Assembly: GCA_002787695.1 (NCBI GenBank) | Contig: PCXL01000011.1 | Span: 61,155-125,154 of the forward strand | DNA length: 64,000 bases | Direction of reading: 5' to 3' | Source of the DNA: Candidatus Zambryskibacteria bacterium CG10_big_fil_rev_8_21_14_0_10_42_12 | GTDB taxonomy: Bacteria; Patescibacteriota; Minisyncoccia; Phycocordibacterales; 1-14-0-10-42-12 | Shown here: one piece after another, positions 3,143-48,911 of the stretch | Layout of the letters: each line of letters begins with the position of its first letter | Position numbering within the stretch: the first letter of the stretch is position 1 | Position numbers and translations under genes: made by a program | The notes under the pieces: generated by a model | What the model was told of the DNA's origin: nothing | The model's database searches: none | The model's input: the letters and a program-made list of their open reading frames with translations, nothing else

Positions 3143-3200
3143 CATGAAAAATGAAGAGGCTCCCGCAAGGGAGCTTTTTCATGTGACCCTACGGGCAGAA
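3143..3200. terminator. Compound hairpin terminator after tRNA-Glu; its outer stem is an inverted copy of the tRNA 3' end
   Basis: GGGTCACATGAAAAA-TGAAGAG-GCTCCC-GCAA-GGGAGC-TTTTTCATGTGACCC. The inner 6-bp stem plus T-run is flanked by a 15-bp outer inverted repeat. Confidence 0.6.
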
Positions 3201-3330
3201 AGGGGTCGGGGAAACTGGGTGTTTCCCCGTGGAGGAAGGCAGTGAGTCCTCGAACGTTGGAAAACCGTGGGTTTCCAAGGTCTCGTAAGGGTCAATGAAA
3301 AATTATCTGTGACCGAAAGTGTATTCACGT

Positions 3331-3348
3331 TTCCCCGTAGGGTCACAT
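3331..3348 (+). repeat. 18-nt perfect direct repeat of the tRNA-Glu 3' end (TTCCCCGTAGGGTCACAT)
   Basis: Identical to 3128-3145. The two copies bracket a 185-bp hairpin-rich segment at 3146-3330. Confidence 0.8.
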
Positions 3349-36496: not shown

Positions 36497-37156
36497 ATGC
36501 GGAAAGGGGTAGTACTGGTTATCTTGTTGTCTCTTGTCGCAACCATTGTTTTTGGATGGTTGTGGTGGAAGACGACCAAGGTCACGCAGGAAGTCGACAG
36601 AGAGATACGTAGGTTGAGAGAGGATATACAACAATCGGAACAGGAATCACGTATAGAAGCTTTTGTCTCGTCGCAGACACAGGCTTTGACGGAAGCACAC
36701 ACGACCGATATGCGTGGACTGCGACAAGAGTTGGCTCAGAATCGACAAGAACTAGAGCGGATAGTGAAGGAGGTGGAAACTCAGAAGGCACTGATTGCCG
36801 AGCGCACTACTCGACAGGAAGTCCAAAAGGAAATAGACGCAAGAGCGAGTATCTTGGCAGATCGTCTCAAGCAGCTCGCTATACGTGTGCTCGATCTCAG
36901 TCGTCGTGTGCAAGAAAATCTGCAACTTGCTCTTGAAGCCAAAGGTGCTTTGGCGGAATTGCAAGACCATGTGCGACGTATAAAACAGGTGACCGATGAC
37001 AACACGCATGAGATACAGGAATTAAATCAAATGCATACATACCGGATTCGGACTGCCTGTGTGCTTGGATACAGCAATGATCCGGATCTTGTGCTGCGTG
37101 CGGAGCGTGTTCGCCTGTCACCTGCGGAGTTTTGTGAACAATTTTTGTCGCAATAG
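36497..37156 (+). CDS. Hypothetical membrane-anchored coiled-coil protein (GC-rich)
   Basis: N-terminal TM VVLVILLSLVATIVFGWLWW followed by about 150 aa of coiled-coil-like sequence. Confidence 0.5.
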   Translation: MRKGVVLVILLSLVATIVFGWLWWKTTKVTQEVDREIRRLREDIQQSEQESRIEAFVSSQTQALTEAHTTDMRGLRQELAQNRQELERIVKEVETQKALIAERTTRQEVQKEIDARASILADRLKQLAIRVLDLSRRVQENLQLALEAKGALAELQDHVRRIKQVTDDNTHEIQELNQMHTYRIRTACVLGYSNDPDLVLRAERVRLSPAEFCEQFLSQ

Positions 37157-37339
37157 CGACTTTCGTCGAGGAGAAGCGCTCCTCGACGAGTTTTTAATGT
37201 TTGTCAAAAAAGCAAAAATAAGCATACAATAGGGACTGCTTGTCCGGGTGATGGAATCCCAAGTAGCAAAGCGAAGCTTACTACGGGACGGGTTGGTAAC
37301 ATAGGAAAAATTACTGAGTGTTGTTTAATAATTTGGAAT

Positions 37340-37421
37340 GCCCGGGTGGCGGAACTGGTATACGCGCACGACTTAAAATCGTGTTCCGAAAGGGGTGCGG
37401 GTTCGATTCCCGCCCCGGGCA
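37340..37421 (+). tRNA. tRNA-Leu (anticodon TAA), type II
   Basis: GCCCGGGTGGCGGAACTGGTATACGCGCACGACTTAAAATCGTGTTCCGAAAGGGGTGCGGGTTCGATTCCCGCCCCGGGCA. Confidence 0.85.
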
Positions 37422-37610
37422 CAAGAATAAAAGAACTGGGCACGAATGTGTCTCGTGATTTTTATTCTCGCCTCGGGCGGGAATCGAAAGCCGGAGCGCG
37501 CGAAGCCGACCGTAGGTCGTGTGCGAGGCGGGGTCGCGACCTCCGTCGTGAAGATTTACCCAGCACTTATAACATAAGTGCTGGGTTTATCGAAACAGGA
37601 GAGTTGTGAC

Positions 37611-37628
37611 CGATTCCCGCCCCGGGCA
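37611..37628 (+). repeat. 18-nt direct repeat of the tRNA-Leu(TAA) 3' end (CGATTCCCGCCCCGGGCA)
   Basis: Identical to 37404-37421. The 190-bp segment between them contains hairpins and a partial inverted copy of the T-arm (GCGGGAATCGAA). Confidence 0.8.
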
Positions 37629-37677
37629 TCATATAAAAAGGAAATGCCCTCGCGGATGCGAGGGGCTTTATGGGGGA

Positions 37678-37851
37678 CTATGCAGCGTTGGCTGTCTCTC
37701 GGGCCAAAATAAGTTTTGGCCCGACTGGCTTGAGTTCACCACGTTTACCTATTTCAACATGGGTGAAATTTGCGAGCGTGATTAGGGCTCCTGGATTCAT
37801 GGCGACCAGGACGTCAATGACATCGTTAACAGGATAGACGCCAGGTTTCAT
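37678..37851 (-). CDS. Small hypothetical protein (57 aa) with its own hairpin terminator
   Basis: MKPGVYPVNDVIDVLVAMNPGALITLANFTHVEIGKRGELKPVGPKLILARETANAA. The stop is followed on the minus strand by GCCCCTCGCATCCGCGAGGGC plus a T-run. Confidence 0.3.
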   Translation of the reverse strand: MKPGVYPVNDVIDVLVAMNPGALITLANFTHVEIGKRGELKPVGPKLILARETANAA

Positions 37852-37988
37852 TTATATTGTTACTCCATACGAAAGATCGGGCCGAGAGTATTTTTATCAT
37901 ATCCTCGTATATATGCAACATAACGCATTCATGCATGCTTCATATGTAGACTGGGGGCGTCCTTTTTGTTATATTTCTTTTGTTTTAA

Positions 37989-38061
37989 CCGCCCATAGCT
38001 CAGTTGGTAGAGCAGTCGCCTCTTAAGCGAACGGTCGTAGGTTCGAATCCTACTGGGCGGA
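37989..38061 (+). tRNA. tRNA-Lys (anticodon CTT)
   Basis: CCGCCCATAGCTCAGTTGGTAGAGCAGTCGCCTCTTAAGCGAACGGTCGTAGGTTCGAATCCTACTGGGCGGA. It has anticodon loop CTCTTAA and an unusual C1:G72. Confidence 0.75.
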
Positions 38062-38076
38062 TGTAATTTAACTCTC

Positions 38077-38784
38077 GTGCTAATGTTTTTTATATTAATA
38101 TATGGTATACGCTATATGCCTTACAATATTAAATACTACAAAACATATCAGTGGAGTAAAAAGTTGGCATATATAATTGGACTTATTGCAACAGATGGAA
38201 GTCTGTCTGTTGACGAGCGTCATATTGATTTTACATCTAAAGATTTAGAGCTTATCAAAATTTTTAAAGATTGTCTGAAACTTTCAAATAAAATAGGTAT
38301 TAAGAAGAGCGGCACAAACAGAGTTTGTTTTTGTATACAATTTGGTAACAAGAATTTTTACAACTTTCTAAATTCTATAGGGATTTATAAGGCTAAATCC
38401 AAAACTATAAAAAGGATTGATATACCTAATAAATATTTTCCACATTTTTTACGTGGCTGTTTGGATGGCGATGGTAATATTGATTTATACAAACATGCAC
38501 AAAGTCAATATATGCAAATTAGATTTAGATTTGCATCTGCGAGTAAACCATTTCTAGAATGGATATTACAGGTATTAAAAATAAAATATAGTATTGAAGG
38601 AGGTTGGATTTATAGTCAAAAAAATAAATCAACCCATGTTTTAGTCTTTGGTAAGACAGACACTTTGAAAATTGGAAAAATCATGTATCATGACCATGCG
38701 AACTTATGCTTACAAAGGAAGTTTGCAAAATATAAACAATGGGCAAGTGGCGGAATTGGTATACGCGCTAGTCTTAGGAACTAG
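38077..38784 (+). CDS. LAGLIDADG homing endonuclease (double-motif), AT-rich; 3' end overlaps tRNA-Leu(TAG) by about 44 nt
   Basis: Two LAGLIDADG motifs, LAYIIGLIATDGSLS and FLRGCLDGDGNID. About 28% GC. It lies between tRNA-Lys and tRNA-Leu(TAG). Confidence 0.8.
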   Translation: MLMFFILIYGIRYMPYNIKYYKTYQWSKKLAYIIGLIATDGSLSVDERHIDFTSKDLELIKIFKDCLKLSNKIGIKKSGTNRVCFCIQFGNKNFYNFLNSIGIYKAKSKTIKRIDIPNKYFPHFLRGCLDGDGNIDLYKHAQSQYMQIRFRFASASKPFLEWILQVLKIKYSIEGGWIYSQKNKSTHVLVFGKTDTLKIGKIMYHDHANLCLQRKFAKYKQWASGGIGIRASLRN

Positions 38785-38822
38785 TGCCGCAAGGCTTGGG
38801 AGTTCGAGTCTCCCCTTGCCCA
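38741..38822 (+). tRNA. tRNA-Leu (anticodon TAG), type II
   Basis: GGGCAAGTGGCGGAATTGGTATACGCGCTAGTCTTAGGAACTAGTGCCGCAAGGCTTGGGAGTTCGAGTCTCCCCTTGCCCA. Confidence 0.85.
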
Positions 38823-38950
38823 CAGTGAGTTTTCGAACGAGGACAAGGACTAGCTTGTGATAACAAGCGTTAGTCTGACTCGAAGCCTGTTTGAGATATT
38901 TTGTGAGCTGGCGAAACAAAATATCCAAACACGGGTACTGAACCTGTAAG

Positions 38951-38974
38951 GTTCGAGTCTCCCCTTGCCCACAG
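38951..38974 (+). repeat. 24-nt direct repeat of the tRNA-Leu(TAG) 3' end (GTTCGAGTCTCCCCTTGCCCACAG)
   Basis: Identical to 38802-38825. The intervening 125 bp contains the hairpin GATATTTTGT...ACAAAATATC and a partial anticodon/T-arm-like stretch. Confidence 0.8.
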
Positions 38975-38984
38975 AAATATTAAT

Positions 38985-39059
38985 TGGAGGCGTAGAGGGG
39001 AATCGAACCCCTGCATAACGGTTTTGCAGACCGTCGTGTTACCACTTCACCACTACGCC
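38985..39059 (-). tRNA. tRNA-Cys (anticodon GCA), CCA encoded
   Basis: Minus strand GGCGTAGTGGTGAAGTGGTAACACGACGGTCTGCAAAACCGTTATGCAGGGGTTCGATTCCCCTCTACGCCTCCA. Confidence 0.85.
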
Positions 39060-39430
39060 ATTGTATCTGTATCGGACTCCAGATTATCATGTTCTTTAGA
39101 AAGAAGCATGTCGATACGCTGTCTATTTTTCTCTCCTTGATCGATATGAAAATCAATAGAAGGGAGTCTCGCAACTTTATATTTTGATTTGAGAAATGTG
39201 ACAAAATCTCTCCTGTTTCTATTCGCAAATAATGAGGCTTGCTCTTCGTATGATTCAGGAAAGACGGTAAACATGACAGAAGCCTTTTTCTTATCGCTTG
39301 ATAAGAGTACGCGCGTCACGGTAATGAGAGATTTACGATTTGATTCTTGTTCAAAGAAAAGGGCTGCACTTTTTCTAATTGCTTCAGTCAGCTGTTCATC
39401 CTTTTTTGCTTTTTGTTCAGGTGTGAGCAT
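39053..39430 (-). CDS. rbfA: Ribosome-binding factor A
   Basis: KSLITVTRVLLSSDKKKASVMFTV resembles the RbfA KH-like core. Located immediately downstream of infB, the conserved gene order. Confidence 0.75.
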   Translation of the reverse strand: MLTPEQKAKKDEQLTEAIRKSAALFFEQESNRKSLITVTRVLLSSDKKKASVMFTVFPESYEEQASLFANRNRRDFVTFLKSKYKVARLPSIDFHIDQGEKNRQRIDMLLSKEHDNLESDTDTMA

Positions 39431-40935
39431 TACTTTATTTCAATGGTAAACCCTTCGAGCGTGTCACCTGTTGCAACTTCAACACGAGATTCGAGCATGA
39501 GGCCGCATTCGTCTCCAGTCTCTGCCTTGCTTGCTTTTTGCTTGGCCTTTTGAAGTTCTTTGATGACTCCTGTGCCTAGTTTATTATCTCTTCGGTAGAT
39601 GTTTACTCTTCCTCCCAATAGAATCTCGCCTTCTTCTACACGACCGCCAATCACCTGCTTTTCTTTAGTTTTGCTAAACAGTTTGAGAATTTTGAGTTTG
39701 CCAGAAGCGACCTCAGTTTCGCTACGAGGAATACGCTTGTTCAGTATTTCATCGAGGCGTTCTGCGAGTTTGTATATGATATCAAAGCTTTCAGTTATGA
39801 TACCGTATTGTTCCGCAGTTCTTTTGGCTGCCTGATCAATTGCTACATTAAAGCCAATGACGATACCAGGAACTTTGCCAGTTACGAGACGTATGTCATT
39901 TTCAGTGATTGTGCCGATACCTGTGTGAACTATTTTTGGGAACAGACGTTCTTCATCCCATTTTGAAATTTCAAACATCACTGCATCGATACTGCCCGCA
40001 GTGTCTGCTTTGATGGCAATCGGAACTTGCAATGCATCTGCCATTTTTTCGGTTGATTCCGAACGTATATCATGTGGTTTGGCTTTGTGTGACTCTGCTG
40101 CGACAAGGGCTTCTTTTTTAGAATCAAACGTTGTAAATGTGCTTCCAACCTGTGGTAATTCAGACCAGCCAACAATACGGACAGGACTCGAGAATGTCGC
40201 TTCATCAATTGTTTTGCCTAAAAAGTTTTCAATACGCCGAACGGGCACAAAGCTGTTGCCAGACTGAATCGCCTGACCTGTTTTGAGGGTGCCGTTTTTA
40301 ATGATGAGTGTTGCACTGATGCCCTTTTTGGGATCAAGGTTGGTTTCGATTATGGCACCTGTTGCTGGTATAGATGTATCACCGGACAAATCTTCCATCT
40401 CTGCAGTGAGGAGCACTAGATCTAAGAGATCCGAAATACCTTCTCCTGTTTTAGCAGATATCGCTGCATAAGAAATATTTCCACCGTAGCCCTCGACGTA
40501 GACGTTATGTTCAGCGAGTGACTGCTTTGTGTTATCTATGTTTGCGCCCGGTTTATCAATTTTGTTGATTGCAACAATAAAGGTCAGTCCTGCTTCTTGT
40601 ATACAATTGAGTGCGTCCAATGTCTGACGTTTTACACCGTCGTCAGCTGCGACAACAAGAATGGCAATATCGGCAGCCTTGGCTCCACGTGTGCGGACAG
40701 AAGAAAATGCTTCGTGACCTGGTGTATCTAAAAAGGTGATTCGCTCGGTCTTCCCGTGCTGATCCGTGTGTTCGACTTCGTAGCTTGAAATATGTTGTGT
40801 GATACCACCTGCTTCGGTTTCAGTGATATTGGTTTTGCGGATATGGTCAAGAAGCGTCGACTTGCCATGGTCGATGTGTCCAAAAATGCCAACTACAGGC
40901 GGTCGTTTTGATTTGTGTGCGGGTTCTGTTGTCAT
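39430..40935 (-). CDS. infB: Translation initiation factor IF-2 (short form lacking the N-terminal extension)
   Basis: GHIDHGKSTLLD (G1), DTPGHEAF (G3), NKIDK (G4). Confidence 0.9.
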   Translation of the reverse strand: MTTEPAHKSKRPPVVGIFGHIDHGKSTLLDHIRKTNITETEAGGITQHISSYEVEHTDQHGKTERITFLDTPGHEAFSSVRTRGAKAADIAILVVAADDGVKRQTLDALNCIQEAGLTFIVAINKIDKPGANIDNTKQSLAEHNVYVEGYGGNISYAAISAKTGEGISDLLDLVLLTAEMEDLSGDTSIPATGAIIETNLDPKKGISATLIIKNGTLKTGQAIQSGNSFVPVRRIENFLGKTIDEATFSSPVRIVGWSELPQVGSTFTTFDSKKEALVAAESHKAKPHDIRSESTEKMADALQVPIAIKADTAGSIDAVMFEISKWDEERLFPKIVHTGIGTITENDIRLVTGKVPGIVIGFNVAIDQAAKRTAEQYGIITESFDIIYKLAERLDEILNKRIPRSETEVASGKLKILKLFSKTKEKQVIGGRVEEGEILLGGRVNIYRRDNKLGTGVIKELQKAKQKASKAETGDECGLMLESRVEVATGDTLEGFTIEIK

Positions 40936-46470: not shown

Positions 46471-46499
46471 AAAAACCGCCTGAGGCGGTTTTTGTTTTG
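46471..46499 (+). terminator. Rho-independent terminator after clpB
   Basis: AACCGCC-TGAG-GGCGGTT followed by TTTTGTTTT. Confidence 0.7.
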
Positions 46500-46624
46500 G
46501 TGCGCCGGGAAGGACTGCGAACACCTTGGAAACCCACAAACCGGGAAGGATTCGCCCCACATTTTATTTATAGAAACAAAACTGTTAACATTAATACTCA
46601 ACAGGTCAATTGTGAAATATAAGA

Positions 46625-47431
46625 ATGGCTAGACGCTGGACAAAAGAAGAAGAGAAGTATTATCGAGATGAATTAGTAAATTTATATTACTCCAAAAACT
46701 TGAGCATGCATGAGGTAGCAAAGGTTTTGAATATAAAATCAGCTACGGTTTTTGATAGATTGCGCCGGTTACGTATTAACACGGTGCCTCATCTTAAGAA
46801 GGGTTATCGAAACGTTCGCAAAGATATTCGTATCCCAGATTGTCATGATGCAAATTTGGCAGAATTTTTTGGCATCATGTTGGGCGACGGCCACCTTTCT
46901 CATTTTCAAGTAACCGTAACATTGGGAACAAAAGAATATGTGTATGTGCAATATGTAAAAAAGTTAATGGAAAAAATTTTTAAAGTGCCAGTTAAAATCT
47001 CAGAAAGGAAGTTTAAGCGAACGGATAATAAGCATTATACTGTTTATTTTGGTTCAACCGTAACGAGTCAGTGGTTAAAAACTGAGGGTTTAGTAGAAAA
47101 TAAAGTGAAAAATCAAGTCGATGTTCCAAAGTGGATATTTGAAAATAATATATTCATGGAAAGATTTTTAAGAGGGTTTTTTGATACTGATGGATCGGTT
47201 TATAAATTGAGGCACGGCATACAAATTGGACTAACAAACCGTTCACTACCGATGCTGAAATCTTTACAATTGATGCTAAAAACACTAGAATACAGGACGT
47301 CTGAAATCAGTGGTTTTCGCTTGTATATAACAAAGAAGCAGGATCTAAAAAGGTTTTTTAAAGAGATTAAACCGAAAAATCCAAAACATACTGCCAGATT
47401 TCAGGAATATCTCAATGCGTCAGTCGCATAG
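46625..47431 (+). CDS. LAGLIDADG homing endonuclease (double-motif) with N-terminal HTH; 3' end overlaps tRNA-Tyr by 15 nt
   Basis: Two LAGLIDADG motifs, LAEFFGIMLGDGHLS and FLRGFFDTDGSVY. N-terminal LSMHEVAKVLNIKSATVFDRLRRL is HTH-like. AT-rich. The stop codon TAG lies inside the tRNA-Tyr acceptor/D region. Confidence 0.8.
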   Translation: MARRWTKEEEKYYRDELVNLYYSKNLSMHEVAKVLNIKSATVFDRLRRLRINTVPHLKKGYRNVRKDIRIPDCHDANLAEFFGIMLGDGHLSHFQVTVTLGTKEYVYVQYVKKLMEKIFKVPVKISERKFKRTDNKHYTVYFGSTVTSQWLKTEGLVENKVKNQVDVPKWIFENNIFMERFLRGFFDTDGSVYKLRHGIQIGLTNRSLPMLKSLQLMLKTLEYRTSEISGFRLYITKKQDLKRFFKEIKPKNPKHTARFQEYLNASVA

Positions 47432-47500
47432 TGGCAATTGCACGAGACTGTAAATCTCGCGGCCTTTTGGCCTACGGGGGTTCGAGTCCCTCCTGGCGCA
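47417..47500 (+). tRNA. tRNA-Tyr (anticodon GTA), type II
   Basis: GCGTCAGTCGCATAGTGGCAATTGCACGAGACTGTAAATCTCGCGGCCTTTTGGCCTACGGGGGTTCGAGTCCCTCCTGGCGCA. Confidence 0.8.
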
Positions 47501-47568
47501 CAATAAAGTAAAACAGCTCGCAAGGAGCTGTTTTACTTTGTATTGCTCTGTTTGGTATATTTAATCCT

Positions 47569-48804: not shown

Positions 48805-48839
48805 ACAAAACCCCAGACATGGGGTTTTGTTTATACTAG

Positions 48840-48911
48840 CGGGTCCACGAGGACTCGAACCTCGAACTTCGGTTTTGGAGACCGACGTTTTACCATTGAA
48901 ACTATAGACCC
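48840..48911 (-). tRNA. tRNA-Trp (anticodon CCA)
   Basis: Minus strand GGGTCTATAGTTTCAATGGTAAAACGTCGGTCTCCAAAACCGAAGTTCGAGGTTCGAGTCCTCGTGGACCCG. Confidence 0.85.

Follow-up and report, generated by a model that had tools for sequence, protein, structure and literature searches.

To our knowledge, homing endonucleases occupy essential genes in two known ways, inside introns and inside inteins. Islands and prophages that integrate into tRNA genes through tyrosine integrases bring their own copy of the gene's 3' end and so keep the gene intact. Among free-standing genes, SegB of phage T4 encodes a GIY-YIG homing endonuclease within the T4 tRNA gene cluster, for which cleavage has been demonstrated; its recognition site takes in conserved tRNA sequence, the T-psi-C motif, and neighbouring tRNA genes are co-converted (PMC2330249). 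Group I introns at position 36/37 of cyanobacterial tRNA-Arg(CCU) genes carry LAGLIDADG open reading frames (ORFs) and tRNA-Asn introns of Patescibacteria carry HNH ORFs, and the survey of tRNA group I introns in Patescibacteria reported no LAGLIDADG genes at tRNAs (PMC13011429). LAGLIDADG genes are also described within rRNA gene insertions of the Candidate Phyla Radiation (CPR), in a study that leaves tRNAs unmentioned (PMC11270868). Here we report the analysis of a LAGLIDADG homing-endonuclease gene (HEG) located between the tRNA-Lys and tRNA-Leu(TAG) genes in a stretch of 64,000 nucleotides (nt), hereafter the window, from Candidatus Zambryskibacteria bacterium CG10_big_fil_rev_8_21_14_0_10_42_12, together with its comparison to loci of other genomes, which are numbered with the prefix L. 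We consider it probable that this gene is a homing cassette that resides in a tRNA gene without any intron, the tRNA being kept whole by a duplicated 5' half.

T4 SegB is the closest functional analogue of this locus, as an intron-less endonuclease gene among tRNA genes that drives its own inheritance with that of the neighbouring tRNA genes. SegB differs in its nuclease family, in its location in a phage and not a cellular genome, and in its intergenic position without tRNA overlap; it has no tRNA-half leftover, duplicated half, or tRNA-derived promoter, and its cleavage is demonstrated, whereas that by the product of the present gene is putative. The HEGs of tRNA group I introns share the anticodon-loop site, including position 36/37, the use of tRNA halves as homology arms and, in the tRNA-Arg case, the LAGLIDADG family, whereas here there is no ribozyme, and the tRNA would be saved at the DNA level by the duplicated 5' half instead of by splicing. 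The tRNA-integrating islands resemble the cassette in that they insert into an essential conserved tRNA gene, carry a replacement piece, and leave a displaced fragment; they duplicate the 3' part of the gene, whereas here the 5' part is duplicated, the HEG is the only gene, and spread would proceed by break repair. No description of tRNA-linked free-standing LAGLIDADG genes or of the duplicate-half design was found in the literature searched, and an earlier description elsewhere is possible; a homing cassette of this design at tRNA genes thus has apparently not been described before.

The locus comprises the following features.
37989-38061, plus strand: tRNA-Lys(CTT), called by ARAGORN and by Rfam at 70.5 bits; the left neighbour of the cassette, 100% identical to its counterpart in a sister species.
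38062-38102, plus strand: left junction DNA, delimited by alignment to the sister species, standing in place of the 19-nt Lys-Leu spacer of the empty site.
38103-38123, plus strand: leftover of a tRNA-Leu 5' half, TGGTATACGCTATATGCCTTA, spanning the D-loop to the anticodon loop.
38116-38784, plus strand: family-1 LAGLIDADG HEG of 222 amino acids, with the motifs LAYIIGLIATDG and FLRGCLDGDG; residues 209-222 are encoded by the tRNA.
38741-38822/3, plus strand: tRNA-Leu(TAG), called by ARAGORN and by Rfam at 58.9 bits, with every arm present.

An earlier note on this DNA had described a two-motif LAGLIDADG ORF of about 28% GC between two complete tRNA genes, and both parts of that description hold: the tRNA-Lys and tRNA-Leu(TAG) calls are sound at the Rfam scores listed above, and the ORF matches the Pfam family LAGLIDADG_3 (PF14528) with E=1.8e-13 and 51 bits, where the curated cutoff is 22.5. 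In the list of ORFs, the 679-nt spacer between the two tRNAs contains this single long ORF, 38077 (GTG) to 38784. The GC content of the ORF body is 28.8%, compared with 42.8% for the window. The likely start codon is the ATG at 38116, because the public gene call (P0001) uses the same start and the N-termini of homologues agree with it, which gives a predicted protein of 222 amino acids with its stop at 38782-38784. The gene therefore begins 55 nt after tRNA-Lys, and not 16 nt as had been noted. At its 3' end it shares 44 nt with nucleotides 1-44 of tRNA-Leu (38741-38784), passing the acceptor stem, the D-arm, and the anticodon loop, and its TAG stop codon is part of the anticodon stem's 3' strand. 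The earlier observation that the ORF reads into the tRNA is thus correct, and its extent, given as 15 codons through the acceptor/D-arm, becomes 14 codons and the stop.

The residues D27/G28 and D117-G120, which include the acidic residues of both LAGLIDADG motifs, are invariant in 24 aligned family-1 sequences. An AlphaFold2 model of the protein built with 24 homologues has a predicted local distance difference test score (pLDDT) of 89.8 and a predicted template modeling score (pTM) of 0.87, is confident from residue 9 to about residue 210, and leaves the tRNA-encoded tail disordered. The modeled fold is pseudo-dimeric, with a double alpha-beta-beta-alpha-beta-beta-alpha arrangement. In a Foldseek search the best match was I-Tsp061I (E=1e-11, TM 0.68/0.73), followed by I-AniI, I-SceI, and I-DmoI, and the matches also include WhiA and the bI3 maturase. 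The closest solved structure by sequence is likewise I-Tsp061I (PDB 2DCH; E=1.3e-5, identity about 19%), an archaeal rRNA-intron endonuclease. The family-1 protein shares its superfamily with I-Tsp061I and with the rRNA-insertion genes of CPR bacteria, and its phylum with the latter, whereas those genes sit within rRNA insertions or introns and target rRNA genes. The family-1 ORF stands alone, the list of ORFs giving no in-frame fusion to a host protein. These results support its assignment as a free-standing, single-chain, two-motif LAGLIDADG HEG and not an intron ORF. The exact protein is recorded from ENA assemblies only, and the IF2 protein and the second LAGLIDADG protein of the same organism are also in NCBI.

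The DNA upstream of the family-1 HEGs points to the origin of this arrangement. Over some 40 nt directly ahead of the gene, most loci contain the pattern ..(A)TTGGyAnACGCTATATGGyTTAG, followed immediately by TATAAT. Judged by its match to the tRNA, this DNA is the 5' half of a tRNA-Leu gene, extending from the D-loop along the anticodon stem's 5' strand up to the anticodon, and in L047 and L044 the leftover is retained from the acceptor stem onward. Alignment of the upstream region to the tRNA of the same locus and an nhmmer profile of the tRNA half were too insensitive for segments of 20-30 nt, and our counts rest on a strict, fixed pattern that was controlled genome-wide. This pattern was found in 45 of the 81 family-1 loci, with an expectation of 0.01 per 140 nt elsewhere in the same loci, and many loci outside this set are near misses, the window included (TGGTATACGCTATATGCCTTAc at 38103-38123, with TTAc for the expected TTAG). 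To describe the HEG as wedged between two complete tRNAs is therefore accurate and incomplete, as segment 38103-38123 is a leftover of a tRNA-Leu 5' half. The leftover has the same anticodon as the adjacent functional tRNA in all 45 strict hits (36 TAG and 9 GAG).

The leftover is followed within 10 nt by a TAnnnT box in 33 of the 45 strict hits. The distance from TTGGyA to this box is 17 nt in 22 loci, 18 nt in seven, and 19 nt in four, which is sigma-70 promoter geometry, and the D-loop of the leftover is therefore probably the -35 element of the HEG promoter. The displaced 5' half thus appears to supply the promoter of the gene that displaced it. At the right junction of most family-1 loci, the tRNA starts 7-8 codons past an invariant Arg-Lys. 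As read from the two junctions, the inserted block is shown to consist of the -10 box, the leader, the HEG ORF, and tRNA nucleotides 1-36, placed at nt 36/37 (or 37/38) of the tRNA-Leu gene. Since the block carries a fresh copy of nucleotides 1-36, an uninterrupted tRNA-Leu is rebuilt downstream, with the HEG ORF ending within it. In loci with tRNA-Leu(GAG) (L070, L071, L080, and L087), a perfect TATAAT box in the sequence ggTATAAT lies inside the 3' end of the HEG ORF, 7-10 nt before the first nucleotide of the tRNA, and the tRNA there probably has its own promoter.

The association with tRNA-Leu extends over many CPR lineages. A database search for family-1 proteins identified 255 relatives with 40-55% identity, nearly all from Paceibacteria/Parcubacteria. 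In a scan of one genome per species, which yielded at least 473 relatives, tRNA linkage was read in the best 80 loci, nearly all from CPR bacteria, and a tRNA-Leu gene lies directly beside the HEG in all 80. In about 68 of them a same-strand tRNA-Leu gene, mostly TAG and also GAG or CAG, starts between -204 and +72 nt from the stop codon, and in the remaining 12 tRNA-Leu is directly upstream. The stop codon is most commonly made by tRNA nucleotides 8-10 (U8-A9-G10). Several relatives end in a translated tRNA-Leu peptide, and the tail of P0026 is identical to that encoded in the window. The isoacceptor follows protein similarity: partners of the TAG type go with at least 46% identity, and GAG, CAG, and CAA partners with 40-46%. 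The GC content of the HEGs is 3-22 points below that of their flanks throughout and loosely tracks that of the host. Two copies are apparently decaying, one broken by an in-frame stop (L012, 2465-3133) and the other without its N-terminal part (L064, 2765-3139). One lineage (L003-L009; in L003, 2834-3624) has a complete tRNA-Leu(TAG), 45 nt, the leftover, and the HEG, with no downstream tRNA, and L004 shows a replaced left flank whose boundary is precisely the tRNA 3' end.

A second LAGLIDADG gene of the window is found at a tRNA-Tyr gene.
46603-46614, plus strand: leftover of the tRNA-Tyr D-loop, AGGTCAATTGTG, upstream of the family-2 HEG.
46625-47431, plus strand: family-2 LAGLIDADG HEG of 268 amino acids, with an N-terminal helix-turn-helix and 34.5% GC; its last 15 nt lie within tRNA-Tyr.
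47417-47501, plus strand: tRNA-Tyr(GTA), the family-2 partner.

The family-2 protein matches LAGLIDADG_3 (PF14528) with 62 bits at the same cutoff of 22.5 and is only 24% identical to the family-1 protein. The residues D88/G89 and D187-G190 are invariant in 27 family-2 sequences, and 898 related proteins were found in the database. In 78 of 80 metagenome loci, tRNA-Tyr(GTA) starts between -39 and +21 nt from the family-2 stop; the other two are uninformative, as their contigs end before any tRNA could show, which makes 78 of 78 informative loci. The stop is often UAA formed by anticodon nucleotides 35-36 and A37. Of 79 loci, 52 have a tRNA-Tyr D-loop leftover in the 100 nt ahead of the ATG, where chance gives 0.003 per 100 nt, and in L136 and L146 this leftover is complete from nt 1 to nt 25-27. 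The D-stem sequence AATTGCA stands 16-17 nt ahead of a TAnnnT box in 21 loci. Family 2 thus seems to follow the same principle as family 1, with a less clear exact junction. The occupancy of tRNA-Leu and tRNA-Tyr genes was sought in the loci of the other family, which covered no such tRNAs.

A third LAGLIDADG family precedes tRNA-Cys; its relation to family 1 is shown by E=6e-37 against the family-1 profile. Its genes are located between RbfA and tRNA-Cys(GCA) in L217 (6509-7408) and L218 (2956-3843), from relatives whose IF2 is about 70% identical, and their stop codon ends 10 nt within tRNA-Cys; no clear tRNA-Cys leftover was seen upstream of the genes in these two loci. Distant LAGLIDADG relatives in viral contigs served as a control: of 37, one adjoins a tRNA and 36 are free of tRNAs within 2.5 kb. 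A chance overlap of ORF and tRNA is ruled out by the surveys of families 1 and 2 together with this viral control. Two statements of the earlier note change accordingly. Free-standing bacterial LAGLIDADG genes, held to be uncommon, are not so in this phylum, with at least 473 family-1 relatives and 898 family-2-related proteins. The pairing of a HEG with a type-II tRNA does recur in the window at 46625-47500, with tRNA-Tyr, and the link to type-II tRNAs is incidental, as a related family precedes tRNA-Cys. A 359-kb viral contig of a very large phage contains a distant LAGLIDADG gene (28% identity) between tRNA-Gly(TCC) and tRNA-Gly(GCC) (L178, 2356-3430), which may be a phage counterpart of the tRNA-linked design.

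The presence of a tRNA-Leu 5' half, ending at the anticodon, upstream of the ORF raises the question of a group I intron in a split tRNA-Leu gene, in which the leftover would act as the genuine 5' exon and splicing would yield the mature tRNA. Introns are known at position 36/37 of bacterial tRNAs, and tRNA genes of Patescibacteria commonly carry group I introns (PMC13011429). At the window locus the test that defines this explanation already goes against it. Rfam detects no ribozyme, of group I or otherwise, at 36800-39600 with E<=10, where only tRNAs and noise are returned, none at gathering thresholds in the whole window, and none at permissive thresholds in the elements downstream of tRNA genes described below; ARAGORN with the intron and tmRNA options gives four plain tRNAs and nothing further. 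The insert between tRNA-Lys and tRNA-Leu holds about 50 nt (under about 60 nt) of non-coding DNA, which is too short for a ribozyme core. The downstream tRNA-Leu is whole by itself at 58.9 bits, and the leftover of the window, which is missing the acceptor strand and the 5' strand of the D-stem, cannot form an exon. Splicing from an intron is thus extremely improbable at this locus, and the view that this is not a simple tRNA intron, for which the earlier note had proposed a search for a group I core, is confirmed. The split tRNA that the note named as a contrary scenario is half true at the DNA level, as the HEG lies inside a former tRNA-Leu gene at nt 36/37; its intron part does not hold.

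Another explanation involves a tRNA-targeting integrative element, that is, a tyrosine-recombinase island at tRNA-Leu, of which the HEG would be a passenger or which it would have survived as a scar. A 24-nt exact direct repeat of the tRNA-Leu 3' end is found at 38951-38974, 149 nt downstream, and in these genomes small insertions with a duplicated tRNA 3' end concentrate at tRNA genes. The HEG lies upstream of the tRNA, outside the segment bounded by the repeat, and no integrase is encoded among the ORFs of the neighbourhood. Elements that duplicate the 3' end also occur at tRNAs without a HEG, most cassette-linked tRNAs are without them, and the junctions that move with the HEG are tRNA nt 36/37 and +1, not the T-loop. 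We therefore regard an integrative element as very unlikely. Two further readings of the 24-nt repeat, as the cassette's right border or as what remains of the resident tRNA, were rejected, since it matches the new tRNA and not the sister allele and the same type of element is present at many HEG-free tRNAs.

These non-coding mini-elements are an observation in their own right and independent of the HEGs. They lie directly 3' of tRNA genes at 38823-38974, 37423-37640, 3144-3346, and 46497-46560 (minus strand) of the window, and also in L014, L018, L022, L023, L033, L037, L039, L054, L071, L103, L141, L153, L169, and L095. Each has a short hairpin, an 11-19-nt segment antisense to the T-arm and acceptor 3' strand of its own tRNA, and a conserved structured core, and ends in a direct copy of the tRNA 3' end from about nt 53-56. 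Among 282 tRNA genes, 22, of many identities, have such an element, and three core sequence families are common to different tRNAs and genomes. The element after tRNA-Leu(TAG) in the window has a fold z-score of -5, and no Rfam family matches these elements. For the gamma element, six copies aligned too poorly by automatic means to give a consensus fold, and its identification as a hammerhead was rejected, as its three-way junction has nearly no unpaired core and no Rfam match. The mini-elements could be mobile mini-elements, recombination-site modules, or RNA elements.

The homing-cassette explanation is further supported by an empty site in a sister species. Further genes around the locus in the window are listed first.
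37340-37422: tRNA-Leu(TAA), called by ARAGORN and Rfam.
38985-39059, minus strand: tRNA-Cys(GCA), called by ARAGORN and Rfam.
39430-40935: IF2, 100% identical to an NCBI protein assigned to a Candidatus Zambryskibacteria bacterium (Paceibacteria, CPR).

The sister species was reached via IF2 homologues, as no RbfA relatives for an empty site were found in JGI metagenome contigs; its IF2 is 83% identical, its gene order is the same, and its coding DNA has about 75-78% nucleotide identity. It has tRNA-Lys and tRNA-Leu(TAG) separated by a 19-nt spacer, with neither HEG nor leftover, and so provides the ORF-free Lys-Leu locus that had been suggested as a check. The family-2 gene is also absent, and the tRNA-Tyr gene is oppositely oriented. 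Between the window and the sister species, tRNA-Leu(TAA), tRNA-Lys, and tRNA-Trp are 100% identical, compared with 72% for tRNA-Leu(TAG), 84% for tRNA-Tyr, and 80% for tRNA-Cys. It follows that, in one or the other of the two lineages, the partner tRNAs of the three HEG families were exchanged. The first 46 nt of the window tRNA-Leu(TAG) are the same as in the cassette-linked tRNA of a distant Paceibacterium (L214), whose endonuclease is only 47% identical to that of the window, and the variable and T arms of the two tRNAs differ. Over 53 TAG-type loci, a Mantel test correlates endonuclease identity with identity of tRNA nt 8-31 (rho 0.21, p=0.0003), and not with that of the variable and T arms (rho 0.01, p=0.43). 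The divergent partner tRNAs and this tracking of the endonuclease by the tRNA 5' half lend indirect support to a possible co-conversion of flanking markers.

Several other changes were seen around these tRNA genes. The tRNA-Tyr (47417-47501) and tRNA-Trp (48839-48911) genes are inverted relative to the flanking genes in the window compared with L095, with tRNA-Trp still 100% identical. The spacer between tRNA-Leu(TAA) and tRNA-Lys is wholly non-homologous (window 37423-37988, L095 12233-12882), while both tRNAs are identical. Sequence turnover is thus much quicker beside tRNA genes than within them. Four independent assemblies from this species or its close relatives (L090, L216, L217, and L218) break alike, in tRNA-Leu(TAG) at nt 8 or 85-135 nt past tRNA-Cys, which hints at strain heterogeneity or repeats at this locus.

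The architecture shows a single-chain LAGLIDADG HEG at nt 36/37 of tRNA-Leu, in the anticodon loop, with the original 5' half, displaced, persisting upstream as a decaying leftover. Based on these observations, we propose the following scenario. The putative endonuclease would cleave cassette-free tRNA-Leu alleles in or near the anticodon arm, a target suggested by the insertion point. Repair of the break off a cassette-bearing copy, with the two tRNA halves as portable homology arms, would then copy the cassette in and swap the 5' half of the recipient tRNA, often with more of the gene. The same design would operate at tRNA-Tyr, at the second gene of the window, and at tRNA-Cys in relatives. 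The process would resemble intron homing, except that gene integrity would be maintained by DNA duplication instead of splicing. By analogy to the autorepression of I-TevI, the leftover that overlaps the promoter could serve as an operator for autorepression. As a speculation, 5' processing of a co-transcribed tRNA would remove the stop codon of the ORF and could limit enzyme production.

Several points weigh against this scenario. The presumed target is derived solely from the insertion point, and the rebuilt tRNA has an intact anticodon arm, so that the occupied allele should still bear it; the immunity of the rebuilt tRNA is putative, and the scenario does not account for its escape from cutting. 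An A9 and a flipped 12-23 pair are found in many cassette-linked tRNAs, and not in that of the window. The leftover of the window is short, contains the ATG (38116), and does not keep the D-loop/-10 geometry of its relatives. The sole promoter-like match upstream of the window HEG is weak: a sigma-70-like TTAACT (38068-38073), a gap of 17 nt, and TATATT (38091-38096) in the left junction, matching at 9 of 12 positions, not above shuffled background. The leftovers are more alike among themselves (..ACGCTATATGG..) than to the local tRNAs, and hence may come down with the cassette as its promoter instead of being re-made at each invasion. The correlation between endonuclease and tRNA 5' half is modest. 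The contigs of the next relatives (IF2 about 70% identical) end 85-135 nt past tRNA-Cys, at the locus, and because of this gain and loss between the window and the sister species are not polarised. RbfA (39053-39430, minus strand) shares 7 nt (39053-39059) with tRNA-Cys at the latter's 5' end, which means that an ORF running into a tRNA is not peculiar to HEGs in this compact genome. Finally, the best 80 hits of each family are all full length, which would fit a retained cellular function too; the sampling of the best 80 favours intact genes.

Such a cellular function defines another explanation, in which a LAGLIDADG protein, domesticated and no longer selfish, would work for the neighbouring tRNA gene, for instance by binding DNA as a regulator in the manner of WhiA or by chaperoning RNA in the manner of intron maturases, its fixed position reflecting co-regulation. 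It would account for the strict and widespread linkage to a single tRNA as well as for the full-length ORFs, and it draws on the additional helix-turn-helix domain of family 2, on the label WhiA given to relatives by some sources, and on WhiA and the bI3 maturase among the structural matches. Yet the catalytic acidic residues of the two motifs do not vary in family 1 or family 2, with no loss of the WhiA kind, and both genes are absent from a sister species of the same gene order. The AT content of the HEGs exceeds that of the host in all cases, some copies are split or truncated, the tRNAs next to the HEGs have undergone replacement, and a leftover together with a duplicated tRNA half is the architecture of a mobile insertion. 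Taken together, this evidence makes domestication unlikely, and the homing cassette remains our preferred explanation.

The comparative data suggest that the design recurs at hundreds of tRNA genes in CPR bacteria. More tentatively, and at somewhat below even chances, we propose that CPR genomes harbor a class of intron-free, exon-duplicating homing cassettes with at least three families (at tRNA-Leu, tRNA-Tyr, and tRNA-Cys), in which the target halves would act as homology arms, the displaced half as promoter, and the ORF would end in the rebuilt tRNA, leading to phylum-wide horizontal replacement of tRNA halves. These cassettes could be descendants of anticodon-loop group I introns that exchanged RNA splicing for DNA-level repair. 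Through the overlap, endonuclease expression could also be tied to the processing of the tRNA, as an RNase P cut at the tRNA 5' end would take off the stop codon.

The analysis flags a trap for genome annotation, an ORF that overlaps a tRNA, and it brings forward hundreds of compact natural putative meganucleases whose likely targets, the anticodon arms of tRNA genes, are predictable from their position. If true, the proposed scenario would add a third way, after introns and inteins, for a homing endonuclease to reside in an essential gene without death of the host, namely partial duplication of the target at the DNA level. It would also account for the sharp divergence of some tRNA genes between sister CPR species in which other tRNA genes are identical, and tRNA genes would emerge as hubs of gene flow in these reduced genomes.

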